From a virus (taxonomy: Duplodnaviria; Caudoviricetes), in IMG/VR virus record IMGVR_UViG_2891407665_000023, positions 916 through 64,915 of that record: 64,000 bases of DNA. One strand, written 5' to 3'. Both the position numbers and the translations under genes were made by a program. This document shows, one piece after another, positions 1 through 53,059 of this stretch (position 1 is its first letter; each line of letters starts with the position of its first letter). Under the pieces are notes generated by a model. That model did no database searches, was not told the DNA's origin, and worked only from the letters and a program-made list of their open reading frames with translations.

Positions 1-264
1 TCATTTTATTCCAGCTTTATCCATCCATCACAACCGCGAAACTTGACTGTGAGAGAAGCTGCAAGAATTCAAACTTTTCCAGACAACTTTGTGTTTATGG
101 GGAAGAAAACCACATTGAGCAAGAAACTTTTAGCAAAAAAAGGAATTTATGAAGAACTGCATTTGGATCAATTTAATCAGGTAGGCAATGCTGTTCCGCC
201 ACTGATGGCACATCATCTGGCGGAGATATGTAAATACCTGTTAACGGAGGGGAAAAAGAAATGA
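1..264 (+). CDS. DNA (cytosine-5)-methyltransferase M1, 5'-truncated by window edge
   Basis: Frame open from base 1 (SFYSSFIHPSQPRNLTVREAARIQTFPD...NQVGNAVPP): C5-MTase motifs IX and X; ATGA overlap with next gene. Confidence 0.9.
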   Translation, partial: SFYSSFIHPSQPRNLTVREAARIQTFPDNFVFMGKKTTLSKKLLAKKGIYEELHLDQFNQVGNAVPPLMAHHLAEICKYLLTEGKKK

Positions 265-1415: not shown

Positions 1416-2284
1416 ATTACGATGAGATGATAACTACAGTCAACGACCTAAATATTACTCAAGGGTTACCAAGAGAAGCCGTTCCGCATGGGAACAATCT
1501 CGTCCATCAGTTTAGAAAGCGGCAAATTGATCGGATGGATATGTACGAAGAGATACTTGCACTGTATTTGGACATAAGGCAAATTCCATTTGAGGAAACA
1601 GATGTCGCTTCTTATATTGGATTGATAGTTGAGAGAGTAAATCAGTACATGGACTATTTTTGGCCTCCGGCAAATAATCCTTTCTCACATCAAGCTGATT
1701 TTACATCAAGTATTATTCCTGAAATGCTGTGTCTTATATTTAATCATGTTATTCAATCCACAGGGCTAAATTTGGAGGTATCAGCTCAGAAAGACCTTAC
1801 TATAGAGTGTATTTTTGATATAGTTGGTGGCGGTGAAATGCGATTCAAAAACAAACGAGTCGATGTAGCTGTAGTAGAACCTTGTAAACTTTCGTTGAAT
1901 GAACAGACGACAGAATTTCCTATTCCTTTGCTTGCAATAGAGTGCAAAACAAATCTGGATAAAAATATGTTGTCAGGTATAGAACACTCTGTTGCAGAGA
2001 TGAAAAAAACTTTTCCGAATTGCCAATATTTCGTAATTACCGAATGTTCTGATTTTAATGTCAAAAAGTCGAATTATGCCTCATCTGGAATTGATGAGAT
2101 ATACATACTCCGAAAACAAAAACGAGGAGTTATTAGAAGGGCTCCTGATTTGAGAAATCCAATAGATGTTTCACTAATTTGTGAGATAACCGAAGCCTTG
2201 ATTGATAACATCAACGCTGTTTGCTCTATTAATGACGATTTGTTGACACGTATGCAAAATGGAAAGTTGATAGGGAGGATTTGA
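1412..2284 (+). CDS. Bpu10I-family restriction endonuclease subunit 1
   Basis: VDVAV...LAIECKTNLDKNML PD-(D/E)xK signature typical of Bpu10I/BbvCI subunits; GTGA overlap with MTase. Confidence 0.75.
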   Translation: MNYDEMITTVNDLNITQGLPREAVPHGNNLVHQFRKRQIDRMDMYEEILALYLDIRQIPFEETDVASYIGLIVERVNQYMDYFWPPANNPFSHQADFTSSIIPEMLCLIFNHVIQSTGLNLEVSAQKDLTIECIFDIVGGGEMRFKNKRVDVAVVEPCKLSLNEQTTEFPIPLLAIECKTNLDKNMLSGIEHSVAEMKKTFPNCQYFVITECSDFNVKKSNYASSGIDEIYILRKQKRGVIRRAPDLRNPIDVSLICEITEALIDNINAVCSINDDLLTRMQNGKLIGRI

Positions 2285-3150
2285 ATATGGAGATTATCGA
2301 CAACAAACATATTCACGGGAAAAATTTACGAGATTATACGGGCAAGCAAAAAGGGAATAAGCGAAATATATTCAATGGATTGATGCAGGCATATGAGCAC
2401 TATCGTAATACCGTGGATGCCATTGATTCATTGGAGGAAGATGGAATTGATAGCTTCGTTGATGCGCTTAACGAATATAGAAAAATAGCAGTTCCAGTAT
2501 TTGACTCTCTGGATAATAATGGTCAGGTTGCACTGGGCTACACCATCATGGAGGAGTTTTTTTATCTTCTTTTTCAGAAGAAAGTTGATATGATGAATAT
2601 TGAACATGAGAACCTTTTTGTCGGAAAAGGAAATTCTTATGTAAGTCTAAGTTTTACACCGAGTTCATTTTCGGAATTGTTTAACAGACCGAATGCTTAT
2701 ATTCATACAAAAGATCAAGATTTTGTTTTAGGTGCAAATGTTGAGATACAGGTTACGGCTGATGGTGAGATAGGAACGACAACTACGGTTATTCCGGCAG
2801 TTGCAATCGAATGTAAAACATATCTGGAAAGAAATATGCTGGATGCTTGTGCAGCAACCGCAAGCAGACTAAAAGCAGCGATGCCTTATTGTATTTATAT
2901 TGTAGCTGCTGAGTATATGAAAATGTCTGATGCGGCTCCTGAATTGACTGACATTGACGAAGTATATATTCTTTGCAGGGCCAAAAACGCTGATCGAGAA
3001 AGACGAAAAAGAGAAAATTTAGCACCATTTGATATAAATACCGATTTAATCGTGGATTTGTATAATCGCGTTAGTAGGCACTTGAATGCAATATGGTGGC
3101 AGCCAGAAAATGCAGTTGAAAACGGAAAGATTATTAACAGGCCAAACTAA
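2281..3150 (+). CDS. Bpu10I-family restriction endonuclease subunit 2
   Basis: DQDFVLG...VAIECKTYLERNML; paralogous to the previous ORF (shared IDEV/IYIL segment). Confidence 0.75.
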   Translation: MNMEIIDNKHIHGKNLRDYTGKQKGNKRNIFNGLMQAYEHYRNTVDAIDSLEEDGIDSFVDALNEYRKIAVPVFDSLDNNGQVALGYTIMEEFFYLLFQKKVDMMNIEHENLFVGKGNSYVSLSFTPSSFSELFNRPNAYIHTKDQDFVLGANVEIQVTADGEIGTTTTVIPAVAIECKTYLERNMLDACAATASRLKAAMPYCIYIVAAEYMKMSDAAPELTDIDEVYILCRAKNADRERRKRENLAPFDINTDLIVDLYNRVSRHLNAIWWQPENAVENGKIINRPN

Positions 3151-3170: not shown

Positions 3171-5054
3171 ATGCCAGATACCCGCTCGTTTACCGAATAT
3201 GTTTCAAACATTTTCAGCAATCAGTTCTGGGCTGCGGCAGAAGAATATCTACAGCAAAATTGGGACTCAGATGATTATGATTTTTACAAACTGCATAGAC
3301 CCGGCGAACCGGAAATTGACGATGTGAAGGTGGAACATGTCTGGGTTTTCGACAGACCTGGCATGCGTATTCAGTTTGATGTGGCGGTGTCCTTGAACCT
3401 TATTATTCCAGAGGCAGACCATCATTACGATGATTACGAGGAGAAAACAATCTGGCTGATGCTCCGCTGTGAGGGCGACCTCGACAAGGAACTTGAAGAC
3501 ACGACCATCTTTGAGATTTCCGCTTATAACGGTAAGAACCGGGATAAAAAGCCATTAGATGATTCCCTTGTGCCGGTATTCGGCAATGAGCAGTTGGACG
3601 AGATTGCGGAGGATTTTCTCCGCCGACATTACAAAAAAGCGCTTTTAGAGCCTTGCTGGGTTGATCCTGTTGAACTTGCAAACACTATGAATCTGACAGT
3701 GAGGTACGAAAACATCACGAGAGATGGTTCGATTTTTGGCCGCAGTTTTTTCTATGATTGCGAAACAGAACTTTACGATGCGGAGTCTGACAACATGTAT
3801 AAGGTTATGATTCCTAAAAAAACAATTCTGGTAGATAGAAGAGCTGCATTTTTGATGGTGCTTGGTGCCGTTAATAATACGATTGTTCATGAATGCGTGC
3901 ATTGGGATAAGCATAAGAAAGCCTTTGCACTGGCAAGGCTATATGATAAGGAACTGTCGAATATCGGATGCCGTGTTGTCGGTGGTATCGCTGGAAACAA
4001 GAGAGATGCTGTTGAATGGATGGAATGGCAGGCTAATGCACTGGCTCCACGGATCCAGATGCCATTGGCCATGTTTAAAAAGAAGGCCGACCAACTTGTC
4101 AGCAAATACCGCAGAGAGATGAAAGCCTATGATATGATTGATATTATAGAGCCTATTATTGACGGATTGGTTCTTGCCTTTGGGGTATCAAGGCTTGCTG
4201 CGAAGATACGGATGTTGGATGCAGGGCATGATGAGGCTTCCGGAGCATTTATCTATGTTGATGATCATTATGTAAAACCCCATAAAGCACCAAAGGGATA
4301 CCTTGACAGCAATAAGACATTTTCTATTTCCGTTCGTGATGCCATTGTTGAATCTAAATTCAATCCAGAACTGGTAGCAATCCTGGCGGATAACGAATAT
4401 GTTTTTGTCGACTCTCATTTTGTCCTAAACACTTCGCTTTACCTGGAAACGGACGAATACGGGAATATGGCACTCACCCATTATGCCAGAAATCATATGG
4501 ATGAATGCTGTCTGGTATTTGAACTTAAAATCAAGACATCTGTAACGGAACATTACCATACGGAGTGTTTCCTTAATAGGGATAAGTCATCTGATATTAC
4601 GTTTGAGGCGCATTATTCTGAAAAGAATAAGACTGCGAAAAATCAAGTACAGATGATAAAGGAGTACAATGCCGATGTATTGTCAATTGCAAAAAAACTT
4701 CCTATGAATTTTTCAGGTTCGTTGGATGCGCTTATAGGATGGGCAGAAATGACTGAGGAAGAATTAGCTGAAGCTGCAGATATGAGTGAAAAAACGATTC
4801 AACGTTTACGGAACACAGAGCCGGATAATGTAACGATTGAAACGGTAATGCAGTTGTGTATTGGGATGAAGTTACCGCCGGTATTGAGTTCTTGTTTGTT
4901 AAAAGCATCTGGGAAGAGTTTCATGATGACAGAACAGCATATCATGTATCAGTTTTTGCTAAACTCTTGCTATCATATGTCGATTTACGATTGTAATGAA
5001 ATGTTAACGGCTCAAGGATTGAAACCTTTAGGACGTCAGAATAGGGTTTCATAA
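3171..5054 (+). CDS. ImmA/IrrE-family metalloprotease fused to C-terminal XRE HTH
   Basis: HExxH (TIVHECVHW), EWQANALAPRIQMP, C-terminal MTEEELAEAADMSEKTIQRLRN HTH. Confidence 0.85.
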   Translation: MPDTRSFTEYVSNIFSNQFWAAAEEYLQQNWDSDDYDFYKLHRPGEPEIDDVKVEHVWVFDRPGMRIQFDVAVSLNLIIPEADHHYDDYEEKTIWLMLRCEGDLDKELEDTTIFEISAYNGKNRDKKPLDDSLVPVFGNEQLDEIAEDFLRRHYKKALLEPCWVDPVELANTMNLTVRYENITRDGSIFGRSFFYDCETELYDAESDNMYKVMIPKKTILVDRRAAFLMVLGAVNNTIVHECVHWDKHKKAFALARLYDKELSNIGCRVVGGIAGNKRDAVEWMEWQANALAPRIQMPLAMFKKKADQLVSKYRREMKAYDMIDIIEPIIDGLVLAFGVSRLAAKIRMLDAGHDEASGAFIYVDDHYVKPHKAPKGYLDSNKTFSISVRDAIVESKFNPELVAILADNEYVFVDSHFVLNTSLYLETDEYGNMALTHYARNHMDECCLVFELKIKTSVTEHYHTECFLNRDKSSDITFEAHYSEKNKTAKNQVQMIKEYNADVLSIAKKLPMNFSGSLDALIGWAEMTEEELAEAADMSEKTIQRLRNTEPDNVTIETVMQLCIGMKLPPVLSSCLLKASGKSFMMTEQHIMYQFLLNSCYHMSIYDCNEMLTAQGLKPLGRQNRVS

Positions 5055-5080
5055 TATTTTTAAAATATTTTTTCTTGTAG

Positions 5081-5099
5081 CCGGACATCCCATGTCCGG
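5081..5099. promoter_or_regulatory. Palindromic operator-like site CCGGACAT-N3-ATGTCCGG
   Basis: Perfect 8-bp inverted repeat; core GGACAT-N3-ATGTCC repeated at 7015-7029. Confidence 0.6.
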
Positions 5100-5124
5100 T
5101 TATGTTTCTATAGAGAGGTGCGAG

Positions 5125-6894
5125 ATGGGAAAATTTGATGTTGATAAGAAATATACTGAAGGTTGTTCTGTTTCATGGCACTCTTTATATATGGATTTGG
5201 TTTATGAGTTCGAAAATTCACATCCTGGTAAATTCATTGATGAGGATACGATTAGGGATAAATTTACTAATAAGGATGGATCGGGATTGGTGGACAAATT
5301 GAAATCAGTGTTGGGTTTTGACATATGTGGTATTGCCGGAACTGATGTTGCAGAACGATTCGATATGTTCAAAATTCTAAAACTGTTGTATTACATTGAA
5401 AAGTATGGAGACCCCAAATCAAAGGCTGTTTCTGATGATTATAGGATTCAAATTACGGATATTTTGGCAAAACCTCGCCTTTCAAATATATCAAGTGAGT
5501 ATACTCCGCATAGTGTATATGGGGAATGTTTTGGAGAATTGTATTCGAATATTAGAAAGATGGCAAGTGATGCAGAAGAACGAGAACATCGATTGGAACA
5601 GATAAATGGATATTGGGAGTATATTACAGACAAGGTTTTTGATTATGTTATCAATGATAGATCCTTGGAGCAGCCGGAGGAAGCTCTTAAGGAATTAGAG
5701 AGAATAAATCGATTTTTGAGGGAAAAGGTGTTGGATAAACTTAAAAACCACGATGTTATTCATTTGTCTCAACCAGAAAAGGTTATGCCCGCCTTCTTTA
5801 ACCTTTTGGCGTGCCATAGGTTATTATGCAATGAGCATGATAGAATTCGTATTAACTATGAAATATGCCTTACTCCCTCTCCAGATGCTGAGTATGTTGA
5901 ACATTTCAAAAAATATGAAAAGTGCGAAGCAAAATGGGAATTTTTATCCTTAATCGGAGAGCGTTTACAAGATAAGAACAAGGATCCCGGTGCGGAACTT
6001 GTGTTATATTTTATAGCCTACGGTAAAAACATTGATGATGACGATATCAAACATTACTTGTATGCTGTAGATAAATCGAAAATTGTGGCCTCATGGATAG
6101 AAAAATATAAAGGCGCTGATTTTAGTAAGGGTATTCCTTTAGATATGCTTGTAATAATTATGCAGGAACTCATCGACAACAAAAAGAATGGTGATAAGAT
6201 TTCAAACGATTATTTTGGCTATAACAACAAATATCGTTCTTTAATGACAGCGGTAAAGAATCCTGAAAAAGCAGATGCGGTTGTGTTACAAGCGTGGATA
6301 AAAAAGTTAGAAAATCGCACAGCTATTAATTTTGGGGCATTTGATTTGATTCAGAAGAAACGTGAGATTGAAACAACAATCTATGGAATAAAGAGCATTA
6401 TCTATTCATACAGAAATCTGGATGACCTGGAATTTGTAAATTCAGCTATATGCCATTTTGCAGCCCGCACTATAATGAGTAGAGACTTAGCAATGAGTAT
6501 AGGTTATCGTTTTGCCGAAAAAGTGGTTTATAATTTAAAGGGCAAAGCAAAAAGAATGATAAATTTTCATATGTGGCCTGAAGGTGTCAATGTGTTAGAT
6601 ATGTTCCGAGAATTTCTTGTAGATAGAAGAGATATTGAGGATTGTATTGCAGAAGAGATTGCAAGACAGATTAATGAATTTTATGAAAAGGATGATGATG
6701 TTATCGGTAGAGGCATGAGAGTTGATTTTGAAGTGTATGTTAGCGAGAAATACTGCAGGGACTTTTTGTTAATATATTTCGTTGACAAAAGTACTGATAC
6801 ACTAACCTATCAACAGTTCTATGAAGTTTGTCCAGATGCCGATGCCGAAAGAATGAAATCCTTGGGATTGGAGCAATTTGTTAAAACGGAATAA
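5125..6894 (+). CDS. Hypothetical protein (~589 aa, AT-rich)
   Basis: Long ORF; GAGGTG RBS before ATG 5125; no motif recognised. Confidence 0.85.
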   Translation: MGKFDVDKKYTEGCSVSWHSLYMDLVYEFENSHPGKFIDEDTIRDKFTNKDGSGLVDKLKSVLGFDICGIAGTDVAERFDMFKILKLLYYIEKYGDPKSKAVSDDYRIQITDILAKPRLSNISSEYTPHSVYGECFGELYSNIRKMASDAEEREHRLEQINGYWEYITDKVFDYVINDRSLEQPEEALKELERINRFLREKVLDKLKNHDVIHLSQPEKVMPAFFNLLACHRLLCNEHDRIRINYEICLTPSPDAEYVEHFKKYEKCEAKWEFLSLIGERLQDKNKDPGAELVLYFIAYGKNIDDDDIKHYLYAVDKSKIVASWIEKYKGADFSKGIPLDMLVIIMQELIDNKKNGDKISNDYFGYNNKYRSLMTAVKNPEKADAVVLQAWIKKLENRTAINFGAFDLIQKKREIETTIYGIKSIIYSYRNLDDLEFVNSAICHFAARTIMSRDLAMSIGYRFAEKVVYNLKGKAKRMINFHMWPEGVNVLDMFREFLVDRRDIEDCIAEEIARQINEFYEKDDDVIGRGMRVDFEVYVSEKYCRDFLLIYFVDKSTDTLTYQQFYEVCPDADAERMKSLGLEQFVKTE

Positions 6895-8873: not shown

Positions 8874-11221
8874 TGCGGGATTTGGTAATAGCCTACGGGA
8901 ATAACCGCCAGGCAAAGAAATGGGTCAATAAGACCACGAAATATACAGATTTAAAAGAGCGTCTCAAAGTTACGATCCGCACAACAGAGTCGGCTGAAGA
9001 ATACGCAAAAATGAGTAAAGCCCAGAGGGATGCTGCCAAAGACCACGGTGGTTTTGTCGGCGGCATCTTGGTCGGCGGCCGCAGAAAGGTAGATACGGTT
9101 GAGTCCCGTTCCATGATTGCGCTGGACGGGGACCGTATTGATACTGCATTCCTTGATAACTATGAAAGAAATGCTCCCTATACATCTTTCCTTTATACAA
9201 CACACAGTCATACAGCGGATAACCCGAGGGTACGCCTGATCTTTCCGCTCACAAGGAATATCACGGCAGAGGAGTTCGTGGCAGTGTCCCGATATCTGGC
9301 GCAAATGCTTGGTATCGACTATTTTGATGAATGCTCCTATCAGCCCAATCAGCTGATGTACTGGCCGTCCTCTCCTCAGAACGGCGTATTTGTATATAAG
9401 GAAGTGGAGAAGGACTGGCTCGATCCGGACGATATCCTGTCGGCGCACCCAGAGTGGACGGACCCAACAAGACTGCCAACATCCTCCCGTGAAAGCAAAG
9501 CCAACCAGATTTCACAGCAGAAGGTCCAGGACCCGCTTGAAAAGGAAGGTACAGTCGGGCTCTTCAACAGGGTCTTCTTCCCTGTTTCAAAAGCCTTGGA
9601 TAATTTTCTTTCGGATGTCTATGAGCCAACTGACAACGAGAACCGCTATCACCTGATTGAGTCGAGCAGTATGGCGGGCGTGGAGATCAAGGATGACAAG
9701 TTCGTGTATTCCCACCACGCGAAAGACCCGGCGTACCTCAGACTCTGCAATGCCTTTGATATCGTCCGTATCCATAAATTCAGCGACATGGATGACAAGG
9801 CGTCCTTTCAGGCAATGTGCGATTTTGCCATGCAGGTGGATGATGTGAGACTCCTTGCAGCGAATGAACGCCTTGCCGGAGCTGAGGCAGATTTTACTGC
9901 CATCGGGGATGATGACTGGAAGAAACGCCTCAAGTTCCAGCCGAGGACGAGTCTTCTGGAAAACAGTGTCTATAACTTGAATCTCATTCTTGCCAATGAT
10001 CCTGATTTCCAGAACTTTGCCTATAACGAGATGGCAAACCGCATCCAGGTGACAGGACCGTTGCCCTGGGATCGGCCGAAGGGCAACGCTTTCTGGCGGG
10101 ATGCGGATACGGCACAGCTGAAGTCTGTGATCGATATCCGCTATCTGCCGTTCTCCAGCCGGAACCACGATGTGGCATTTACCAAGACCGCCGATGACAG
10201 GCATTTCCATCCTATCCGCGATTACCTAGACAGTCTTCCCGTGTGGGACGGCATTGAACGGGTGGAGGATCTGTTTATCCGGTATCTGAAAGCGGATGAC
10301 ACTGAATATGTGCGCACGGTCACACGGAAGACCTTTGCTGCGGCGATAGCACGTGTCTATGTCCCCGGCACGAAGTTTGACTGCGTTCCCGTGCTGGACG
10401 GCGACCAGGGTATCGGAAAAAGCACCATCGTAAAGGACCTGGTCACGCCGGATTATTACTCCGAAACACTGTCCCTTACCGACATGGATGACAAATCCGG
10501 CGCAGAGAAGCTGCAGGGTTTCTGGGTGGTGGAGATTGGGGAGCTTGCCGGGATGAAGAAGGCAGACATTGAGAAGGTCAAGGCATTCCTGTCCACTTCG
10601 GATGACAAATACCGTCCCTCTTATGGCAAGGTGGTGGAATCGCATCCGAGACAGTGCATCATCATCGCTACAGTCAACGGTGAGAGAGGGTATCTGCGTG
10701 ACATCACGGGCAACCGCCGCTTTTGGATCATCAAGGTGCATCAGAAAAAGCAGAAGAAGACCTGGGATTTCGATGAACAGTTCCGGCAGCAGTTCTGGGC
10801 GGAGGCAAAGGAGATCTGGAAGTCCGGCGAAAAGCTGTATCTGGAGGGAGACATTCTCGAAGAAGCAGAAGAAGCGCAGCGCGGGGCTATGGAGACGGAC
10901 GAGCGCGTCGGCATGATCGAGGAATACTTAAATACCGATCTGCCGGACGACTGGGTGGAAATGGATCTTTTTGCCCGCAGGAACTTCCTCACGGGTACGG
11001 AGTTTGGCAGACCGGAGCATGACGGGAAAGCCATCCGTACCGAGGTCAGCAATGCGGAGATATGGTGCGAGTGCTTCGGAAAGAGCCTGCAGGAGCTGAA
11101 GCCTTCCGACAGCTATGGGATTGCGGCGATGATGGCGCAGATTCCAGGCTGGGAGCGGACTGCTGTGATCCGGCGTCAGCCCATATACGGCAGGCAGCGG
11201 CTTTACCAGAAAATCATGTAA
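8873..11221 (+). CDS. Virulence-associated E (VirE/VapE) primase-helicase
   Basis: N-terminal primase-like region; Walker A GDQGIGKST; SF3-like VVEIGEL; RDITGNRRFW. Confidence 0.9.
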   Translation: MRDLVIAYGNNRQAKKWVNKTTKYTDLKERLKVTIRTTESAEEYAKMSKAQRDAAKDHGGFVGGILVGGRRKVDTVESRSMIALDGDRIDTAFLDNYERNAPYTSFLYTTHSHTADNPRVRLIFPLTRNITAEEFVAVSRYLAQMLGIDYFDECSYQPNQLMYWPSSPQNGVFVYKEVEKDWLDPDDILSAHPEWTDPTRLPTSSRESKANQISQQKVQDPLEKEGTVGLFNRVFFPVSKALDNFLSDVYEPTDNENRYHLIESSSMAGVEIKDDKFVYSHHAKDPAYLRLCNAFDIVRIHKFSDMDDKASFQAMCDFAMQVDDVRLLAANERLAGAEADFTAIGDDDWKKRLKFQPRTSLLENSVYNLNLILANDPDFQNFAYNEMANRIQVTGPLPWDRPKGNAFWRDADTAQLKSVIDIRYLPFSSRNHDVAFTKTADDRHFHPIRDYLDSLPVWDGIERVEDLFIRYLKADDTEYVRTVTRKTFAAAIARVYVPGTKFDCVPVLDGDQGIGKSTIVKDLVTPDYYSETLSLTDMDDKSGAEKLQGFWVVEIGELAGMKKADIEKVKAFLSTSDDKYRPSYGKVVESHPRQCIIIATVNGERGYLRDITGNRRFWIIKVHQKKQKKTWDFDEQFRQQFWAEAKEIWKSGEKLYLEGDILEEAEEAQRGAMETDERVGMIEEYLNTDLPDDWVEMDLFARRNFLTGTEFGRPEHDGKAIRTEVSNAEIWCECFGKSLQELKPSDSYGIAAMMAQIPGWERTAVIRRQPIYGRQRLYQKIM

Positions 11222-11356
11222 GCGAGACACACACAACACAACTGTTTCCCTTATATTCAAAACGCTTTTTATAAGGGTCAGTAATGAAAACCTGTGAGCG
11301 CGCACCCGCGATAGTAAATATAAGGGGGCAGTTGTGATTTTGTGTTCCTGTGTCGC
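11222..11356. repeat. Long imperfect inverted repeat (candidate replication origin)
   Basis: Arms 11222-11257 and 11317-11356 share CACAACTG and CCCTTATATT in inverted orientation. Confidence 0.55.
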
Positions 11357-11368
11357 ATGGAGGCAAAT

Positions 11369-11650
11369 ATGAACGAAAAACAGATTGAACGAAAACTTGT
11401 GGAGGCAGTAAGGTGTGCAGGCGGTCTTGCGCCGAAGTTCGTAAGTCCCGGTTTTGATGGCGTGCCGGATCGCCTGATTCTCCTCCCTTCCGGGCGCATG
11501 GCGTTTGCGGAATTGAAGAGCTCCGGCAAAAGGATGCGTCCCCTGCAGGTCAGGAGGAAAAAGCAGTTGGAGAGTCTCGGCTTCCGGGTTTACTGCATAG
11601 ACGGGACGGAACAGATTGGAGGTGTCATTGATGAGATACGAGGCACATGA
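11369..11650 (+). CDS. VRR-NUC domain protein
   Basis: GVPDRLILL...FAELKSSG...RPLQ; GGAGG RBS. Confidence 0.9.
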   Translation: MNEKQIERKLVEAVRCAGGLAPKFVSPGFDGVPDRLILLPSGRMAFAELKSSGKRMRPLQVRRKKQLESLGFRVYCIDGTEQIGGVIDEIRGT

Positions 11651-12983
11651 TTATCAGAAGTACGCCACCGACTTCATCCTGACGCATCCGATAGCGGCTG
11701 TGTTTCTGGAGATGGGGCTTGGTAAGAGCGTTATCACGCTGACGGCGCTGTTTGATCTCATCTTGGATCAGTTCCTTATCCGAAAAGTACTGGTAATCGC
11801 GCCGCTGCGAGTGGCGAGGGATACCTGGCCTTTGGAAATAAGGAAATGGGACCACCTGTCGGGGCTGACCTATTCCGTGGTGGTCGGAAATGAGTCAGAG
11901 CGGAGGACGGCACTGATGTGGACAGCGGATATTTACATCATCAACCGGGAAAACGTGGACTGGCTGATCACAAAAAGCGGCATTCCCTTTGACTTTGACA
12001 TGGTCGTGATTGATGAGCTGTCATCCTTCAAATCCCATCAGGCAAAAAGGTTCAAGAGCCTCTTAAAAGCCAGACCGTCCGTAAAGAGGATCGTAGGACT
12101 TACAGGAACACCGAGCAGTAATGGGCTGATGGATTTATGGGCGGAGTTTCGGCTCCTTGACCTGGGACAACGGCTCGGAAGATACATCTCCCATTACCGA
12201 GCAGCCTATTTTATGCCGGACAAGCGGAACGCCGAGGTCATCTTCAATTACAAGCCTCTGCCGGGTGCGGAGGATGCAATCTACCAGAAGATATCCGACG
12301 TCACCATTTCCATGAAGTCCTGCGATTACCTGAAACTGCCGGAATGCGTGACCAACGAAGTGCCAGTCGTCATGAATGATAAGGAAATTGCGGTGTATGA
12401 CCGGTTCCGGGAAGACATGGTGACAAAGATCAAGGATAAGGAGATAGATGCTGCCAACGCAGCAGTGCTTTCCGGCAAACTCCTGCAGATGGCAAACGGT
12501 GCGGTCTATGACGAGGAGAAAGTCAGCTGCCATATACACGACCGCAAGCTGGACGCCCTGGAAGACCTAATCGAAGGCGCAAACGGTAAACCCGTGCTGA
12601 TCGCCTACTGGTATCAGCATGATGCCGAGCGTATCAGAGCAAGGTTCCCAGTTAGGGAGATCAAAACATCCCAGGATATCGAAGATTGGAATGCGGGAAA
12701 AATTTCTGTAGCAATCATCCATCCGGCATCGGCGGGGCATGGTCTGAACTTGCAGGCAGGCGGTTCCACGCTTATATGGTTCGGGCTTACATGGAGCCTG
12801 GAACTGTATCAGCAGACGAACGCAAGACTCCACCGGCAGGGACAGAAGGACACAGTCATAATCTACCATATCATCGCAAAAGGCACGATTGACGAGGATG
12901 TCATGAAGGCGCTGCGGAAGAAAGAGAAGACCCAGGATGCACTGATCAATGCGGTCAGGGCTAACCTGGAGGTGGGGCGATGA
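11631..12983 (+). CDS. SNF2-family (DEAD/DEAH-like) helicase
   Basis: EMGLGKS, VVIDELS, LTGTP, GHGLNLQ, QTNARLHRQGQ. Confidence 0.92.
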   Translation: MRYEAHDYQKYATDFILTHPIAAVFLEMGLGKSVITLTALFDLILDQFLIRKVLVIAPLRVARDTWPLEIRKWDHLSGLTYSVVVGNESERRTALMWTADIYIINRENVDWLITKSGIPFDFDMVVIDELSSFKSHQAKRFKSLLKARPSVKRIVGLTGTPSSNGLMDLWAEFRLLDLGQRLGRYISHYRAAYFMPDKRNAEVIFNYKPLPGAEDAIYQKISDVTISMKSCDYLKLPECVTNEVPVVMNDKEIAVYDRFREDMVTKIKDKEIDAANAAVLSGKLLQMANGAVYDEEKVSCHIHDRKLDALEDLIEGANGKPVLIAYWYQHDAERIRARFPVREIKTSQDIEDWNAGKISVAIIHPASAGHGLNLQAGGSTLIWFGLTWSLELYQQTNARLHRQGQKDTVIIYHIIAKGTIDEDVMKALRKKEKTQDALINAVRANLEVGR

Positions 12984-13192
12984 CCGTTCATTATGAAAAT
13001 CTCGCCCAAGCGGTGATCCTGCAGGCAGTGAAAGACTACCGCACGGCGAGGAAGGAACTGAAATATCACCCGAAGAACAAAGACACGAAGCTCATGATAG
13101 AGGATTGTGAGAGGTTCTTTCGTTCCGACTGGTTCGGAGTGTTGACATCAGTCGATGGACAGATGCTCCTAATAAGATTACAGGAGGAATAA
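12980..13192 (+). CDS. Conserved phage hypothetical protein
   Basis: YENLAQAVILQAVKDYR...ERFFRSDWF; overlaps the helicase stop. Confidence 0.75.
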   Translation: MTVHYENLAQAVILQAVKDYRTARKELKYHPKNKDTKLMIEDCERFFRSDWFGVLTSVDGQMLLIRLQEE

Positions 13193-13197
13193 CTATC

Positions 13198-13623
13198 ATG
13201 ACAGCAAAGGAATATTTACGGCAGGCATACCGCCTGGATCAAAAAATAAGCAGTGATCTGGAGGAGGTGGCATCGCTTCGAGAAATGGCCATAAGTGTAT
13301 CCTCTCCACAGCTGGCTGAGCGGGTACAGACTTCAGGAAATACAGATGCGCCGTTTGTGCGGGCATTGGAAAAGATTATGAATCTTGAGGAACGGATTAA
13401 TAAGGAAATTGATCTTTTGATGGAGCTTAAGAAAGAGATTCGGACGGTCATTACGACGGTTGAGGATACAGATGAACGCATGGTTCTTAAATACCGTTAC
13501 GTTCATAACTATACCTGGGAGCAGATTGGTAATGTGCTTCATGCCGATGCGAGAACGGTACGCAGATGGCATGGGAAGGCTCTGCAGCATGTGATTTTGC
13601 CTGATAATTCCATTACGATATGA
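13198..13623 (+). CDS. ArpU/RinA-like late transcriptional activator (DUF1492-type)
   Basis: MTAKEYLRQAYRLDQKI...LKYRYVHNYTWEQIGNVLHADARTVRRWHGKAL; position just before the packaging genes. Confidence 0.8.
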   Translation: MTAKEYLRQAYRLDQKISSDLEEVASLREMAISVSSPQLAERVQTSGNTDAPFVRALEKIMNLEERINKEIDLLMELKKEIRTVITTVEDTDERMVLKYRYVHNYTWEQIGNVLHADARTVRRWHGKALQHVILPDNSITI

Positions 13624-13637
13624 AATGCGCCCTAAAT

Positions 13638-13677
13638 GTCCAGGTTTGTCCTAAGACGTCCATGTGTACATTATGAT
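13638..13677 (+). promoter_or_regulatory. Late promoter: GTCC x3 at 10-bp period plus TATGAT -10
   Basis: GTCC at 13638, 13648 and 13658; TATGAT at 13672-13677. Confidence 0.6.
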
Positions 13678-13708
13678 ATAGTAAAATTAGCAAAGATAAA
13701 ATGAGTTG

Positions 13709-13739
13709 AGCCTCATGGAAGCAATTCCGTGGGGCTTTT
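13709..13739 (+). terminator. Terminator-like hairpin
   Basis: AGCCTCATGGAA-GCAA-TTCCGTGGGGCT then short T run. Confidence 0.55.
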
Positions 13740-13767
13740 CTCATGCCCGGAAAGCGAGGTGATTTGT

Positions 13768-14133
13768 ATGCCGAGGAAACCACGGCGCGGATGCGCTTAC
13801 AGCGGCTGCCCAAGGCTGGCTGTCGAGGGCGGTCAGTACTGCGAGGAGCATCAAAAGCTTACCGTGCAGCAGTACAACAAATACACACGCAGTCCCGACA
13901 CGAACAAGAAGTACGGCCGAGCCTGGAAGAGAATCCGCGACCGCTATGCTGCGGCGCATCCCCTGTGTGAGCGCTGCCTTAAGGAAGGACGGCTGACTCC
14001 CGTGGAGGAGGTACACCATATCCTCCCCATTTCTCAAGGCGGCGATCATCATGAGAGCAACCTCATGTCATTGTGCCAGTCCTGCCACACCAAAATGCAT
14101 CTTGAGATTGGTGACAGGCAGATCCGCAGCTAA
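13768..14133 (+). CDS. HNH endonuclease (terminase-associated)
   Basis: HPLCERC...EEVHHILP...NLMSLCQSCHTKMH. Confidence 0.92.
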   Translation: MPRKPRRGCAYSGCPRLAVEGGQYCEEHQKLTVQQYNKYTRSPDTNKKYGRAWKRIRDRYAAAHPLCERCLKEGRLTPVEEVHHILPISQGGDHHESNLMSLCQSCHTKMHLEIGDRQIRS

Positions 14134-14324
14134 CCGGGAGGGGCAGGTCAAATCTCTGCATAAGGGTTCTCCGGAGAACGGCGTGGGGTCACACGCATAA
14201 AAACCGGAAATCAAACGGGGGATTGCCCGCCCGGAGATTTCCGCAAAATAAAGGCTTCCGGGGTACTGCAGTGTTTGATTTCCGCAACATTTTTCAAAAA
14301 AATCAAAGAAACGGGGTGGAAACA

Positions 14325-14858
14325 GTGGCAAAAGACGGCAGCGGGCGTGGCGGCGCAAGGCCGGGGGCGGGGCGTAAGCCCAAGGCGCTCATAGAAAAGA
14401 TCAGCGAGGGGAAGACGGCAGAGGTGCTGATGGAGCCTGCCGAACTGGAGGGCGTGGACGTTCCGCCCGTGAAGGATTTCCTGAAATCCCCGCAGAAGAG
14501 CGGGCGGGAGCTGGTGGCGGAGGAAGTGTACAACGAAACATACGCCTGGCTGAAGGCGAGGGGCTGTGAAAAGCTGGTCACCGTGCAGATGGTGGAGCAG
14601 TATGCCATGAGCGTGTCCCGGTGGATTCAGTGCGAGGAGATTGTATCTTCCACTGGATTCCTTGCGAAGCACCCGACCACAGGGGCCGCCATCGCTTCCC
14701 CCTACGTCACCATGAGCCAGTCCTACATGAAGCAGACTAATTACTGCTGGATGCAGATCTACCAGATTGTGAAGGAGAACTGCTCAGTGGAGTTTTCGGG
14801 GAACACGCCCCAGGATGACGTGATGGAGCGGCTGCTCCGTGCAAGGAAAGGGATATAG
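14325..14858 (+). CDS. terS: Terminase small subunit (P27 family)
   Basis: GTG start; RGGARPGAGRK; AKHPTTGAAIASPYV; follows the HNH gene. Confidence 0.85.
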   Translation: MAKDGSGRGGARPGAGRKPKALIEKISEGKTAEVLMEPAELEGVDVPPVKDFLKSPQKSGRELVAEEVYNETYAWLKARGCEKLVTVQMVEQYAMSVSRWIQCEEIVSSTGFLAKHPTTGAAIASPYVTMSQSYMKQTNYCWMQIYQIVKENCSVEFSGNTPQDDVMERLLRARKGI

Positions 14859-14891
14859 GATTATTTGAAAACAGTTTTTTCTGTAAAAGTC

Positions 14892-14919
14892 TTGATAATT
14901 ATCCTGTAGGTGCTATAAT
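14892..14919 (+). promoter_or_regulatory. sigmaA-type promoter of the nucleotidyltransferase moron
   Basis: TTGATA-N16-TATAAT with TG extension (TGC TATAAT). Confidence 0.75.
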
Positions 14920-14991
14920 GTAATGATTTAGCAGATCAATGCTGAATGGAAGGCTTGGGAATAAATGAAAAACACAAAGGAGAGTTAAACC

Positions 14992-15663
14992 ATGCAGCAC
15001 GATTTTCATTTTATTTCTAAGAAAGATCCAAAAGTAAAAAAGGCATATGAGGATATCCAAAATATGCTCAAAGAAGTCCAGAACTTGGTCGGGGAGAAGT
15101 TTACATTCAGATTTGATGTGGTGGGCAGCTATAAGCGGAACATGATCACCTACGATGCCAAATCAAATGTAGGATATGACTTTGATTTCAATATTGAGGT
15201 CAATGATGGGAATGAAAAGTACACGCCAAAACAGCTAAAGGATATTCTTCGGAACGCAATAGGCGCTGTTTGTGTGAAATACGGATATGATTATCCGGAG
15301 GATTCCACGCGTGTCCTGACGATTAAGAAGAAAAACAGGAAAGAATCACGCATCCTCCATAGCTGTGATTTCGCAATCGTAAATAACTATATTGACGATG
15401 AGGGATATGAGTGCCAGGAATATATCCACTTTGACAAGCCACATAGGAACTACACATGGTGCGAACAGCCAGATGGATATTATATGCTGCCGGAAAAGAT
15501 CGATTGGATTAAGGAGAATGGATTATGGGATGAAGAGATGAAGGGAGTATACATTGAAAAGAAAAATAAGAACGATAATCCGGATATGCATTCGAGAGCC
15601 ATTTTTGCTATGACTGTTCATGAGATATGCCAGAAGTTCGGGTTTTATGAAGATGAAAAATAA
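14992..15663 (+). CDS. Pol-beta-superfamily nucleotidyltransferase (cGAS/DncV/SMODS-like), moron
   Basis: hGS motif VVGSYKR, DxD in YDFDFNI, third Asp in SCDFAIV; AT-rich relative to flanks; AAGGAG RBS. Confidence 0.7.
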   Translation: MQHDFHFISKKDPKVKKAYEDIQNMLKEVQNLVGEKFTFRFDVVGSYKRNMITYDAKSNVGYDFDFNIEVNDGNEKYTPKQLKDILRNAIGAVCVKYGYDYPEDSTRVLTIKKKNRKESRILHSCDFAIVNNYIDDEGYECQEYIHFDKPHRNYTWCEQPDGYYMLPEKIDWIKENGLWDEEMKGVYIEKKNKNDNPDMHSRAIFAMTVHEICQKFGFYEDEK

Positions 15664-15688
15664 ATAAGGATATAGCAGTTAAACCAAT

Positions 15689-15718
15689 GCCGTTCAGCAG
15701 AAATGTTGGGCGGCTTTT
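15689..15718 (+). terminator. Intrinsic terminator of moron
   Basis: GCCGTTCAGCA-GAAA-TGTTGGGCGGC-TTTT. Confidence 0.75.
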
Positions 15719-15744
15719 CTATGCAAATTTTTTCGGAGGTGGAA

Positions 15745-16995
15745 ATGAAAACCACGACAGATATGCAGCTTGTTTCTATTGACAGGCTTGTACCTTATGT
15801 GAATAATGCACGGACGCACTCGCCGGAGCAGCTCACCAAGCTCCGCTCATCCCTGCGGGAGTTTGGCTTCATCAACCCGGTCATCATCGACCGGGACTTC
15901 AATGTCATTGCGGGGCATGGCAGGATCATGGCGGCGAAGGAGGAAGGGATCACAGAAGTCCCATGTGTGTTTGTGGACTATCTGACGGAGGCGCAGAAGA
16001 AAGCCTACATCCTTGCGGACAACCGCATGGCATTAGACGCGGGATGGGATGAGGAGCTGCTCCGCATTGAGATCGAATCCCTGCAGGGTGCGGATTTTGA
16101 TGTATCCCTTACGGGCTTTGGTGAGGATGAGATCGCAGACCTTTTTGCCGGGGACAGGGAGAAGGATGTGAAGGATGATGACTTTGATCTTTCCGCAGCC
16201 TTGGAGAAGGCGGCGTTCGTGGAGCGGGGCGACATCTGGACGGTGGGCAGGCACAGGCTGATGTGCGGGGATGCCACCAGTGCGGAGGACGTAGAGGCGC
16301 TCATGGACGGGAAAAAGGCAAACCTCATCGTGACAGACCCGCCGTATAATGTCGCATTCAAGAGCGGCAGCGGGCTTTCCATCCAGAACGACAGCATGGA
16401 AAACGGGGAGTTCTACACTTTTCTGTACAATTCCTTCCAGAACATGGCGGCGCATCTGGAGAAGGGCGGCGCGGCGTATGTGTTCCATGCGGACACGGAG
16501 GGGCTGAATTTCAGGAAAGCCTTTGTGGATGCGGGGTTCCACTTGGCGGGTGTGTGTATCTGGGTGAAGAATTCCCTGGTGCTTGGGCGCTCGGATTATC
16601 AGTGGCAGCATGAACCGGTGCTTTACGGCTTTCTGAAAAACGGCAAGCACCCATGGTATTCCGACCGGAAGCAGACTACTATCTGGAATTATGACAAGCC
16701 GAAGCGGAACAAGAACCACCCGACATCCAAGCCGTTGGATCTGCTTGGCTATCCCATCTGCAATTCCTCCCAGGAGAACGCCATCGTTCTGGATACTTTC
16801 GGCGGCAGCGGCTCCACGATGATGGCATGCGAGCAGACAAACCGCATCTGTTGCATGATGGAGTTGGATGAAAAGTATGCATCCGTCATCCTGCGGAGGT
16901 ATGTGGAGGATACCGGGGATTTGGAAAACGTGTATGTGAAGCGGAGCGGGGAGAAGATCCCATACTCTGTTTTGGTGAAGGAAGTACAAGCATAA
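15745..16995 (+). CDS. ParB/Srx-N-terminal + N6/N4 DNA methyltransferase
   Basis: IAGHGR ParB motif; DPPY catalytic motif; VLDTFGGSGST SAM motif (beta class order). Confidence 0.92.
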   Translation: MKTTTDMQLVSIDRLVPYVNNARTHSPEQLTKLRSSLREFGFINPVIIDRDFNVIAGHGRIMAAKEEGITEVPCVFVDYLTEAQKKAYILADNRMALDAGWDEELLRIEIESLQGADFDVSLTGFGEDEIADLFAGDREKDVKDDDFDLSAALEKAAFVERGDIWTVGRHRLMCGDATSAEDVEALMDGKKANLIVTDPPYNVAFKSGSGLSIQNDSMENGEFYTFLYNSFQNMAAHLEKGGAAYVFHADTEGLNFRKAFVDAGFHLAGVCIWVKNSLVLGRSDYQWQHEPVLYGFLKNGKHPWYSDRKQTTIWNYDKPKRNKNHPTSKPLDLLGYPICNSSQENAIVLDTFGGSGSTMMACEQTNRICCMMELDEKYASVILRRYVEDTGDLENVYVKRSGEKIPYSVLVKEVQA

Positions 16996-17095
16996 TGGAT
17001 ATTTATGCACAATGTGAGGGAACGGGATCGCGCTCCCGAACGCGTATTTCATGTTTGCGGGCATTGTGTACTACGCCCAGTTCCCGGACTTTTTA

Positions 17096-17153
17096 TTGTG
17101 ACATTTTTCCTACGGTTTTCCTTGCTATTTTTACCAGTTTGAGTGATTAATGT
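17096..17153 (+). promoter_or_regulatory. Cassette promoter module copy A
   Basis: TTGTGAC-N18-CTTGCTATT-N11-GAGTGATTAATGT; left operator arm degenerate. Confidence 0.65.
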
Positions 17154-19644: not shown

Positions 19645-19757
19645 ACGAAAAACGGAGCATTACAAGAACGGAGCCGGAAGGCTCTGCATCTTGTACTGAT
19701 AGATTGGGCTTGCCGCTGGCAGGCCATTTTTGATGCCATCTTCCGGAGGTGATGCCG

Positions 19758-21365
19758 ATGGCAATGCGGAAACTGAAAAAATACAGGCCGACGAAGTTCA
19801 AGGCGAAGGACAGCCGCTATGATAAGGATGCCGCCGATTTTGCCGTGATGTTCATCGAGAGCCTCTGCCACACCAAGGGGACATGGGCGGGGAAGCCCTT
19901 TGAGCTGATCGACTGGCAGGAGCAGATCATCCGGGACATTTTCGGCACCCTGAAACCGAACGGCTACCGGCAGTTCAACACGGCCTATGTGGAGATCCCG
20001 AAGAAGCAGGGGAAGTCGGAGCTTGCCGCCGCCGTGGCGCTGCTTCTGACCTGCGGGGACGGGGAGGAACGCGCCGAGGTGTACGGGTGCGCCGCCGACC
20101 GGCAGCAGGCCACCATCGTTTTTGATGTTGCCGCTGATATGGTGCGGATGTGTCCCGCCCTTTCCAAGCGGGTGAAGATACTCGCCTCGCAGAAGCGGAT
20201 CATATACACGCCCACCAATTCCTTCTACCAGGTGCTTTCGGCAGAAGCGTATTCCAAGCACGGCTTCAACATCCACGGCGTGGTGTTCGACGAGCTGCAC
20301 ACGCAGCCGAACCGGAAGCTGTTTGACGTCATGACTAAGGGCTCCGGGGACGCCAGGATGCAGCCGCTGTATTTCCTCATCACCACAGCGGGGACGGACA
20401 CCCATTCCATCTGCTACGAGACGCACCAGAAGGCGAAGGACATCCTGGAGGGAAGGAAGATCGACCCGACCTTCTATCCCGTCATCTACGGCGCGGATGA
20501 GGCGGACGACTGGACGGACCCGAAGGTTTGGAAGAAGGCGAACCCCTCGCTGAACATCACGGTGGGGATTGACAAGGTGGAGGCCGCCTGCGAGTCGGCA
20601 AAGCAGAACCCCGGCGAGGAGAACAGCTTCCGGCAGCTCCGCCTGAACCAGTGGGTGAAACAGGCGGTGCGGTGGATGCCCATGGACCGGTGGGACGCCT
20701 GCGCCTTCCCCGTTTCCGAGGACGGCCTGGAAGGGCGCGTCTGCTACGGCGGGCTGGACTTGTCCTCCACCACGGACATCACGGCGTTCGTGCTGGTGTT
20801 CCCGCCGTTAGATGAGGAGGACAAATACTGCATCCTGCCGTACTTCTGGGTGCCGGAACAAACGCTGGAGCTGCGTGTGAGGCGCGACCATGTTCCCTAC
20901 GATGTGTGGGAGCGGCAGGGGAAGCTGATGACCACGGAGGGGAACGTGGTGCATTATGGCTATATCGAAAAGTTCATCGAGCGGCTTGGGGAGCGGTTCA
21001 ACATCCGGGAGATCGCCTTCGACCGGTGGGGCGCGGTGCAGATGGTGCAGAACCTGGAGGGCATGGGCTTCACGGTGGTCCCGTTCGGGCAGGGCTTCAA
21101 GGATATGTCCCCGCCGACTAAGGAGCTGATGAAGCTGGTGCTGGAGCAGATGGTTGCCCATGGCGGGCATCCGGTCCTTCGGTGGATGATGGACAACATC
21201 TTCATCCGCACCGACCCGGCGGGGAACATCAAAGCGGACAAGGAAAAGTCCACGGAGAAGATTGACGGGGCGGTGGCCGCCATCATGGGGCTTGACCGGG
21301 CGATCCGCTGCGGGAACGTCTCCTCGGAAAGCGTCTACGACACCCGCGGGCTCCTCATCCTGTAG
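19758..21365 (+). CDS. terL: Terminase large subunit
   Basis: PKKQGKSEL Walker A; VVFDELH Walker B; GGLDLSSTTD; EKIDGAVA. Confidence 0.95.
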   Translation: MAMRKLKKYRPTKFKAKDSRYDKDAADFAVMFIESLCHTKGTWAGKPFELIDWQEQIIRDIFGTLKPNGYRQFNTAYVEIPKKQGKSELAAAVALLLTCGDGEERAEVYGCAADRQQATIVFDVAADMVRMCPALSKRVKILASQKRIIYTPTNSFYQVLSAEAYSKHGFNIHGVVFDELHTQPNRKLFDVMTKGSGDARMQPLYFLITTAGTDTHSICYETHQKAKDILEGRKIDPTFYPVIYGADEADDWTDPKVWKKANPSLNITVGIDKVEAACESAKQNPGEENSFRQLRLNQWVKQAVRWMPMDRWDACAFPVSEDGLEGRVCYGGLDLSSTTDITAFVLVFPPLDEEDKYCILPYFWVPEQTLELRVRRDHVPYDVWERQGKLMTTEGNVVHYGYIEKFIERLGERFNIREIAFDRWGAVQMVQNLEGMGFTVVPFGQGFKDMSPPTKELMKLVLEQMVAHGGHPVLRWMMDNIFIRTDPAGNIKADKEKSTEKIDGAVAAIMGLDRAIRCGNVSSESVYDTRGLLIL

Positions 21366-47989: not shown

Positions 47990-48060
47990 CTTATGATATC
48001 AATATTCCGGATTGATTCATACAAATATGTTTTAAATAGATCAATGTAAGGATACAAGAG

Positions 48061-48147
48061 ATGAAAGCAATAGATACAGAATTTGCCAAATTTCTGGGCG
48101 TAGAAACACAGTTTTTTGTTCCAATTTATCAGATGTCAGGCAAATAG
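48061..48147 (+). pseudogene. 5' remnant of a DUF262/GmrSD gene (28 codons)
   Basis: MKAIDTEFAKFLGVETQFFVPIYQ then premature stop; resembles the DUF262 N-terminal F.IP.YQR motif. Confidence 0.55.
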
Positions 48148-48165
48148 AAAAGGAAGTGTAACCAT

Positions 48166-49881: not shown

Positions 49882-49882
49882 T

Positions 49883-52066: not shown

Positions 52067-52090
52067 TTGATATGATTAAGGATCGTGCCA

Positions 52091-52523: not shown

Positions 52524-52546
52524 ACCTGTTTAGTAGGAGATGTACT

Positions 52547-52945: not shown

Positions 52946-52952
52946 AACCGTG

Positions 52953-52989: not shown

Positions 52990-53004
52990 CGCTCATTTGC
53001 ATCT

Positions 53005-53033: not shown

Positions 53034-53059
53034 GAAATCAAAAAAGGTTGGTGTTGATT

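Follow-up and report, generated by a model that had tools for sequence, protein, structure and literature searches.

What does an enzyme of the cGAS/DncV-like nucleotidyltransferase (CD-NTase) type do in a phage in which no effector gene is found next to it? To our knowledge, the understanding of CD-NTases is limited to a role as one half of an operon of sensor and effector. The question is raised by a 64,000-nt stretch of phage DNA (hereafter the window; positions 916 to 64,915 of the IMG/VR provirus record IMGVR_UViG_2891407665_000023, 64,915 bp in length), which carries between the gene terS and a DNA methylase gene a solitary gene for a protein of 223 amino acids (aa), the mini-NTase. We consider it highly probable that the mini-NTase is an active nucleotidyltransferase (NTase) of CD-NTase ancestry, encoded by a mobile, leader-controlled cassette without partner genes. 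The gene is preceded by a conserved RNA leader of 41 nt, a new element which has no match in Rfam 15 and which, among the matches listed and apart from two exceptions described below, is coupled exclusively to this NTase family.

Fold, conservation and spread of the mini-NTase

The original prediction, made from the letters of the DNA, had named a Pol-beta NTase triad, and all of its motifs are present: VVGS (G45, S46), YDFDF (D63, D65) and CDF (D126). The AlphaFold (AF2) model of the protein is of high confidence (predicted local distance difference test, pLDDT, 95.4; predicted TM-score, pTM, 0.88), and the structural searches agree with the cGAS/DncV-like fold that had been proposed. The top 50 Foldseek matches were CD-NTases only, with CdnB in first place (2.9e-7), followed by CdnE, DwCdnB, DncV, CdnD and CdnC. 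In pdb_via, too, all of the best 50 matches were CD-NTases or cGAS (CdnG with Z 13.6, a root-mean-square deviation (rmsd) of 3.9 and 189 aligned residues). The VIA-wide structural search yielded CdnG (Z 12.9, rmsd 3.9, 197 aligned), CdnB (12.7) as well as DncV and CdnE (11.7 each); terminal uridylyltransferases (TUTases), OAS, cGLRs and poly(A) polymerase (PAP) rank after the CD-NTases at Z 9-11. The sole match in a BFVD structure search was an uncharacterised giant-virus protein. The alignments stop at residue 206 of 290 in CdnB, 230 of 272 in CdnE, 269 of 335 in CdnG and 317 of about 385 in DncV. Thereby the model ends 40-110 residues short of the canonical enzymes, as expected from the minimal C-terminal lobe of the original prediction.

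The query matches Pfam DncV-like_NTFase with an E-value of 0.054, and Pfam SMODS is touched by 3 of 62 aligned family members, every one of them under the cut-off (best E 3.4e-4); a search of the provirus with the Pfam SMODS family gave no match. By these scores the mini-NTase stands outside formal Pfam membership. The PADLOC model of a CBASS (cyclic oligonucleotide-based antiphage signalling system) cyclase, PDLC00809, matches the query with E 1.8e-4, and PDLC00795 is matched by nine of the 62 members (best 8.4e-8), all of these being matches of the sub-threshold type. Nearly all PADLOC matches of these members are to CBASS cyclase models. The nearest named clusters in ESM-Atlas are SMODS/DncV-like with a score of 0.86, to be taken as a lead only. 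No NCBIfam family was matched by the query at E-values up to 10, and searches of PHROGs and of PDB sequences with the query returned noise only. Judged by model and motifs, the protein is probably an active, miniature and distant relative of the CD-NTases.

In the alignment of the 62 sequences D63 and Y187 are invariant, and G45, S46, T53, G61, D65, V108, D126, Y154, W156, K191 and S201 are conserved to at least 90%. Of 299 full-length members, 288 retain both the GS pair and all three acidic residues, i.e. the catalytic Asp residues are conserved among the homologues. Compared with orthologues at dS above 1, dN/dS is 0.05-0.09 (about 0.06), indicating strong purifying selection on the gene.

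Clustering the family at 90% identity leaves 1,677 clusters, and at 50% identity 493 representatives; nearly all members are 205-235 aa long and annotated as hypothetical. At least 113 species genomes contain the family, which is a common one in Clostridia from the gut of mice, humans and ruminants; within the host family, 12 of 301 species genomes (about 4%) carry one to three copies each. Our literature searches found no description of it.

These data bear on the possibility that the mini-NTase is a decayed CBASS remnant or a non-enzymatic, domesticated fold. The truncated C-terminal lobe, the missing effector and some frameshifted copies would fit such a decay. However, all catalytic residues are kept in the 288 members mentioned above at a dN/dS of about 0.06, more than 1,600 clusters share a constant length of about 220 aa, and every copy comes with a conserved promoter, leader and terminator of its own. 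By this conservation the remnant reading appears largely refuted, and we consider it extremely improbable.

Three proteins of 426-444 aa (P0130, P0136 and P0165) are tandem fusions of two mini-NTase domains. Their C-terminal copy is intact, and the N-terminal copy has Asn in place of the third catalytic Asp; in P0136 the N-terminal copy also lacks part of the DxD motif. In the AF2 model of P0130 both halves fold (pLDDT 87.7; pTM 0.52) and the linker is disordered. The tandem fusions hint at a dimeric working unit.

The cassette and its leader RNA

Sister phages as well as metagenome contigs show an empty terS-methylase junction, which identifies the sequence between the two genes as an inserted cassette (Table 1). 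We surveyed this slot in 51 phage loci anchored on terS. About 24 of them are empty, the terS stop being followed by 6 nt and the methylase ATG; about 13 contain a small open reading frame (ORF) of 166-178 nt, and the remaining loci a radical-SAM-like gene or a gene for a 260-aa protein. An intact NTase gene occupies the slot in three loci (L090, L067 and L060, with 84%, 73% and 26% identity to the query). Three further phages, L066 (1748-2438), L074 (2334-3024) and L075, carry a frameshifted NTase of the L060 type (184 + 68 aa) in the same slot, with flanks more than 90% identical to the window. Furthermore, metagenome contigs in X15 and X20 join position 14851 to 15786 or 15796 and omit 934-944 nt, corresponding to the empty site. 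TerS is 85-95% identical among sister phages with or without the cassette. The G+C content is 0.35-0.41 across 14850-15750, compared with about 0.55-0.60 in the flanks; the low-GC gene between terS and the methylase, its ORF and its neighbours are as originally described.

At filled sites with very different NTase alleles, the flanks before the promoter and past the terminator are alike, which suggests one old insertion followed by allele replacement via the conserved cassette ends. By comparison of these loci, divergent alleles (26-84% identity) are swapped within the same phage slot. The NTase is also more diverged than its flank (83% amino-acid identity, compared with 92-93% for the methylase). 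Across the family, the cassette, almost always accompanied by the structured leader, occurs in phages, in conjugative and transposon-like elements and at chromosomal sites of many Clostridia. A 94%-identical cassette lies in a non-phage context in the cultured strain Schaedlerella arabinosiphila DSM 106076 (L298, about 4338-5185); there, 49 nt from the 3' end of the phage terS are left, and the cassette adjoins genes for an AAA ATPase and an integrase-like protein.

The gene has its own near-consensus promoter with an extended -10 region, and TTGACA/TATAAT-type boxes of relatives keep the same spacing to the leader. A hairpin of 11 pairs (15689-15714) followed by TTTTCT forms a terminator-like element at 15689-15720, and comparable terminators (...CGGTTTTTTCATGC) lie downstream of NTase genes in both phage lineages. 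By itself, the consensus scan for promoters and terminators does barely better than chance, with 5 sites against an expectation of 3.5; what makes the promoter, the leader and the terminator credible is that relatives conserve their positions. Metatranscriptome contigs cover the cassette at 14822-15894 (X15), 15434-15894 (X16) and 15528-15738 (X17), the rest of the phage being covered at similar depth. The description as a moron, a cargo gene with its own promoter and terminator, therefore holds, with empty sites in about 24 sister phages; it lacked the structured 5' leader. Its placement as a prophage gene of the packaging module holds for this phage, where it is an inserted moron, but across relatives the cassette is specific neither to phages nor to the packaging module.

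The covariance model of the leader has a single strong match in the window and none in empty-site phages. The same layout is common to NTases that are only 26-84% identical, in every context: the sigma-A promoter, about 5 nt, GAUUU(A/G)G and a variable inner stem and loop are followed by C(U/C)(A/G)AAUGG-NN-GG-N(U/A)UGGG, an A-rich spacer, GGAG and AUG. The tail after hairpin P1 is invariant (UGG-NN-GG-NNU-GGG). Among 30 distinct leaders, 94.3% of the cells of the 7-bp hairpin are paired, with compensatory double changes at four of the seven pairs and frequent G-U wobbles; none of 500 shuffles was as good, and slid registers fall to 28-46%. The single-sequence fold of the leader is no better than shuffles (z -1.3). 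Scanning 14500-16000 against Rfam 15 gave a chance miRNA match only (24.5 bits, gathering score 90). The spacing from the -10 box places the probable transcription start at the invariant GA, and the hairpin would then be 5'-terminal.

The leader pattern including the -10 box has at least 120 instances in species genomes. Of the 120 matches listed, 113 precede an ORF of the NTase family; the others are four chance matches without -35 box or stem, one at a contig end and two genuine exceptions, i.e. 113 of 115 genuine copies belong to the family. In the first exception, L328 (5916-7243), a leader of 28.3 bits is followed by an NTase of 435 aa that is SMODS-like (Pfam SMODS E 1.6e-5), and the NTase in turn by a 72-aa Asn/His-rich NPNN-repeat protein. 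In the second one, L302 of Ruminococcoides intestinihominis (1406-1442, minus strand), a leader of 44.7 bits with a proper promoter precedes an 80-aa protein with two transmembrane segments. A pattern without the -10 box was discarded; 9 of its 119 matches were genuine, all nine upstream of NTases, and the rest was swamped by a coding coincidence in Dcm methylases (FDLAAEWMGW).

In the window a seven-codon upstream ORF (uORF) overlaps the Shine-Dalgarno sequence of the NTase (AAGGAGAG, about 14977-14984). Similar uORFs occur in L262, L241 and L001, i.e. the subgroup of the window, and are absent from most leaders. We rejected a conserved leader peptide, as the uORF is confined to this subgroup and the AUG within AAAUGG is lost in L025 and L033. 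A G-quadruplex including the Shine-Dalgarno sequence was also considered; it would have two tiers only and a last loop of up to about 40 nt. The leader may act as a small riboswitch, bind a protein or the ribosome, stabilise the mRNA or serve the enzyme as an RNA partner; it is a candidate for a new class of regulatory RNA in Clostridia.

Leader and promoter are informative also with respect to a single-protein nucleotidylating toxin of abortive infection (MenT/AbiEii- or TUTase-like, acting on tRNA, RNA 3' ends or protein) which would be restrained by the leader RNA rather than by a protein antitoxin. The tight conservation of the 5' leader suggests restrained expression, and the frameshifted alleles fit a costly gene. 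Structures of TUTases, PAP and GLD-2 match over the whole model (Z 9-11); the best 50 matches in Foldseek and pdb_via, however, are CD-NTases and cGAS and not tailing enzymes or MenT. Moreover, RNAalifold on 60 leaders found no helix sequestering the Shine-Dalgarno sequence, and a near-consensus, constitutive-looking promoter would be surprising for a strong toxin. Abi_2, RelB/ParE and DUF3800 neighbours occur at some loci, but there is no antitoxin gene in the roughly 157 loci surveyed (see below). A toxin is thus a quite unlikely explanation.

The carrier is a temperate phage of mouse-gut Lachnospiraceae; its record comprises the viral element only, the host chromosome not being part of it. 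Among mouse-gut genomes of Lachnospiraceae/Clostridia, L280 matches the window at 11778-16612 with 94.6% identity and L241 at 9869-17151 with 92.4%. Upstream of the cassette, Pfam gives the order VapE-like primase, SNF2 helicase, sigma-r4/DUF1492 protein, HNH endonuclease and terS. The true start of the methylase downstream is most likely the ATG with the ribosome-binding site GGAGGTGG: the sequence MKTTTDMQLV of the window aligns with MGKTTTEMQLV of empty-site phages, and alignments of sister phages enter the longest ORF at residue 15-16. As the methylase probably begins there, the terminator hairpin would be intergenic and outside the methylase gene.

In other phages, the interval between terS and TerL is a cargo hot spot (L002, 9304-11002; L004, 10316-10600; L098-L101; L095). 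Beside or instead of the NTase it contains Amidoligase_2 with GGACT, Nmad4, a radical-SAM-like protein of 300 aa (CxxxCxxC) or a 260-aa protein. The window has two more low-GC regions, an islet at 261-3150 with a type II restriction-modification (R-M) system, which lies at one end of the provirus record, and a block at about 46000-53800.

Table 1. Features of the cassette, its flanks and the two other low-GC regions (positions in the window)
Feature	Position	Strand	Basis or remark
Inserted cassette, ~934 bp	14852-15785	+	replaces the junction of terS stop and methylase start
Sigma-A-type promoter, TTGATA-16 nt-TGcTATAAT, extended -10	14892-14919	+	consensus scan, 11/12 positions, TG present
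Conserved 5' leader motif, 41 nt	14923-14963	+	covariance model, 50.2 bits, E 6e-12
Hairpin P1 (AUUUAGC/GCUGAAU)	~14926-14950	+	5'-proximal part of the leader
Seven-codon uORF, MKNTKES*	14965-14988	+	ends 3 nt before the NTase ATG
NTase ORF, 223 aa	14992-15663	+	
Intrinsic-terminator-like hairpin and T-tract	15689-15720	+	3' end of the cassette
HNH endonuclease	13729-14133		Pfam
terS, left flank	14223-14858	+	Pfam Terminase_4
ParB_N and N6/N4 DNA methylase, right flank	15745-16995 (probable start; longest ORF from 15703)	+	Pfam
TerL	19749-21365		Pfam
C-5 cytosine methylase (Dcm)	261-1415		low-GC islet
Bpu10I-like restriction endonuclease, two subunits	1412-2284 and 2281-3150		low-GC islet
SHOCT-domain protein	46559-47989		second low-GC block
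Two GmrSD-type (type IV restriction) genes	48166-49881 and 49844-52066		second low-GC block
ParA-like ATPase	53691-54560		region of the second block

Neighbouring genes and possible roles

Neighbourhoods were surveyed in 50 viral or metagenomic loci and in 107 species genomes reached via the leader (about 157 loci). No gene is a universal neighbour. There is no adjacent Cap effector or regulator in the window, in line with the original prediction, and none that is general across the survey; neither an antitoxin or HEPN partner nor an adjacent HalA membrane effector was found in the window or in the surveyed loci. Homologues are therefore not always paired with an effector or antitoxin, and the stand-alone status is well supported, because no neighbour is general across the loci.

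The most frequent context in the viral and metagenomic loci is a ParB-methylase as the next gene downstream (24-27 of 50). These loci include a second phage lineage, whose methylase is only 41% identical and in which the cassette follows TerL and cargo consisting of a helix-turn-helix DUF3990 protein, RelB/ParE and a metallophosphatase. Other contexts in these loci are DUF3800-NTase-Abi_2, serine recombinases, a trypsin-like protease, EVE-McrB-like ATPases, integrases and tail genes. Among the 107 species genomes, the ParB-methylase lies downstream in 12; in 7 a VirB4-like ATPase is found downstream, and PrgI upstream in 7. Being flanked by PrgI and the VirB4-like ATPase, the cassette lies inside an operon of a type IV secretion system (T4SS) there. 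This placement in conjugative elements was seen e.g. in L282, L223, L276 and L317; a position in the ArdA slot of the leading region was rejected, given these neighbours. We also rejected an obligatory pairing of NTase and methylase, since most phages with a 90-96%-identical methylase have no NTase and about half of the NTases have no methylase.

In 8 of the 107 genomes (e.g. L340 and L233) the start of a zinc-ribbon/transmembrane protein of 220-231 aa is no more than 15 nt from the NTase stop codon, and a small Asn/His-rich NPNN-repeat protein overlaps the stop codon in 3 of the 107. In L230, L286, L300, L027 and L024, proteins of 46-72 aa with sNQhNPNN repeats begin 4 nt before the NTase stop. 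The NPNN-repeat proteins are possible minor partners. All three roles suggested by the original prediction, an abortive-infection toxin, a decoy or jammer and a synthase for a receptor encoded in trans, remain candidates.

ABC-F and other resistance-like genes stand next to the NTase at some loci. It might therefore be that the protein nucleotidylates a small molecule, i.e. an antibiotic or xenobiotic, and that the cassette is of the resistance type with an inducible leader as in erm and cat attenuators. ANT and Lnu enzymes are likewise small two-lobed NTases, and the cassette is mobile, solitary, equipped with a promoter and common in gut Clostridia. Nevertheless, NCBIfam including the NCBI resistance models had no match at E 10, no ANT, Lnu or KNTase structure was among the best 50 of any structural search, the sole sequence signal is that of CBASS cyclases, and a conserved leader peptide is missing. 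A resistance function is consequently very improbable.

Another explanation is counter-defence, by which the nucleotide product would jam or pre-empt signalling immunity of the host. Examples would be an inhibitory 'all-clear' nucleotide of the Panoptes/mCpol or Hailong kind, or a competing ligand of CBASS or type III CRISPR receptors. The cassette is carried by phages and conjugative elements alike, which this reading would explain, including the PrgI-VirB4-like placement in 7 species. It stands immediately before an anti-restriction-type ParB-methylase in 24-27 of the 50 viral loci as well as in 12 of the 107 genomes. This adjacency, however, is explained by a shared insertion slot and recombination, and the copies in conjugative elements lie inside the T4SS operon instead of a leading-region cluster of anti-defence genes. 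A strong host-type promoter would permit expression immediately on entry, and an effector-less enzyme suits a pure producer of signal; the layout with a regulatory leader and a bounding terminator is more typical of cargo benefiting the host. Immune systems with inhibitory signalling have been reported (10.1101/2025.03.28.646047, PMC12657230). On balance we consider counter-defence rather unlikely.

Instead, we favour a role in defence. The enzyme would condense NTPs with its GS/DxD/D site and with K191, S201 and Y187 of the C-terminal lobe, the product being a cyclic or linear di- or oligonucleotide. The leader RNA would gate expression or translation as a small riboswitch or factor-binding element, and the product would need no effector encoded in cis; it would act directly or have a target encoded at another place. 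As with a moron, the cassette may protect the lysogen or carrier cell from other mobile elements. A defence-type moron role is favoured by the layout with promoter and terminator, by allele turnover and decay and by the patchy distribution. It is also favoured because the same phage holds low-GC islets with defence genes (Dcm and the Bpu10I-like R-M system, GmrSD) and because some relatives adjoin McrB-like, Abi_2, DUF3800 or RelB/ParE genes.

Several points weigh against the defence role. The tie to defence genes is loose, as the cassette is also found in T4SS operons and beside anti-restriction methylases. In the VIA-wide search, tailing enzymes of the TUTase/PAP type trail the CD-NTases only slightly (Z 10-11). 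The query reaches 14.9 bits and is thus below the Pfam gathering scores for SMODS/DncV (cut-off 24.9; PF18144/PF21654), and the last 40-110 residues of the canonical C-terminal lobe are absent from the 223-aa protein. With a truncated lobe and scores below these cut-offs, the enzyme may use another substrate and make another product than CD-NTases do. In the leader, RNAalifold on the 60 sequences supports only hairpin P1 and no helix that would sequester the Shine-Dalgarno sequence, and our literature searches gave no precedent for an effector-less CD-NTase. We therefore regard defence-type nucleotide synthesis as a possible role that is slightly more doubtful than not; the explanation as a whole, a leader-controlled solitary CD-NTase-type synthase acting in defence, we hold to be evenly balanced between right and wrong.

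A more specific form would be a two-part conflict module of RNA and enzyme, in which the leader, as a new riboswitch or sensor of a factor, gates the effector-less CD-NTase, with a conserved target in the host or in mobile elements. This form is unlikely; if true, a solitary CD-NTase would be seen for the first time to form a signalling system, and the superfamily would gain its first class of RNA regulators.

The mini-NTase is one third smaller than the smallest characterised CD-NTases and belongs to a large family without an encoded effector. If it is active, cGAS-type enzymes may have a new output logic, in which the product is itself the weapon or has a receptor in trans; alternatively, the mini-NTase may be a countermeasure of mobile elements built on nucleotide signals. 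The cassette may thus represent a new use of cGAS-type enzymes in microbial conflicts. With one 223-aa protein and one 41-nt RNA the system is compact and easily testable.

Comparison with known systems

The CD-NTases of CBASS (CdnG, CdnB, CdnE, CdnD and DncV) share with the mini-NTase the two-lobed fold, the N-terminal spine helix and the GS...DxD...D site, and in structure they match it best (Z 12-13.6 over about 190 aligned residues). They are about 270-400 aa long, compared with 223 aa, and adjoin a Cap effector (transmembrane, patatin, nuclease, TIR or SAVED), whereas the mini-NTase has none in the approximately 157 loci. Unlike these cyclases, it is encoded by a single-gene cassette that hops between contexts, equipped with a promoter and terminator of its own and with a dedicated leader RNA.

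The animal cGAS, cGLRs and OAS of the Mab21 superfamily share the class of fold with it (Z about 11.5 for cGAS and 10.2 for OAS2). However, they are about twice the size of the mini-NTase, have known receptors (STING, RNase L) and are activated via nucleic-acid binding surfaces which are absent from it. TUT1, TUT7, GLD-2, Cid1 and PAP likewise combine a Pol-beta lobe with a helical lobe and match over residues 4-223 with Z 9-11; these eukaryotic RNA-tailing enzymes have extra domains, rank below all CD-NTases and give no sequence-profile signal.

MenT/AbiEii, HEPN-MNT and HalB of Hailong are also small NTases of the Pol-beta superfamily that act in defence. They are two-gene systems with an antitoxin, HEPN or HalA, whereas no such partner accompanies the mini-NTase. 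DUF1814/MNT was not among the matches listed for Pfam, Foldseek and VIA, nor HalB among those listed for Foldseek and VIA, which is still compatible with a distant similarity.

The mCpol protein of Panoptes is encoded next to its own membrane effector. Its fold is that of the Cas10 palm domain, in contrast to the Pol-beta/CD-NTase fold of the mini-NTase, which has no such neighbour. As reported, mCpol is a minimal CRISPR polymerase of a defence system with inhibitory signalling (10.1101/2025.03.28.646047, PMC12657230); it is a conceptual analogue, i.e. a stripped-down synthase of nucleotide signals in the conflict between phage and bacterium. Compared with all of these systems, the architecture of the CD-NTase-like mini-NTase is new, and so are its genomic logic and the RNA motif associated with it.

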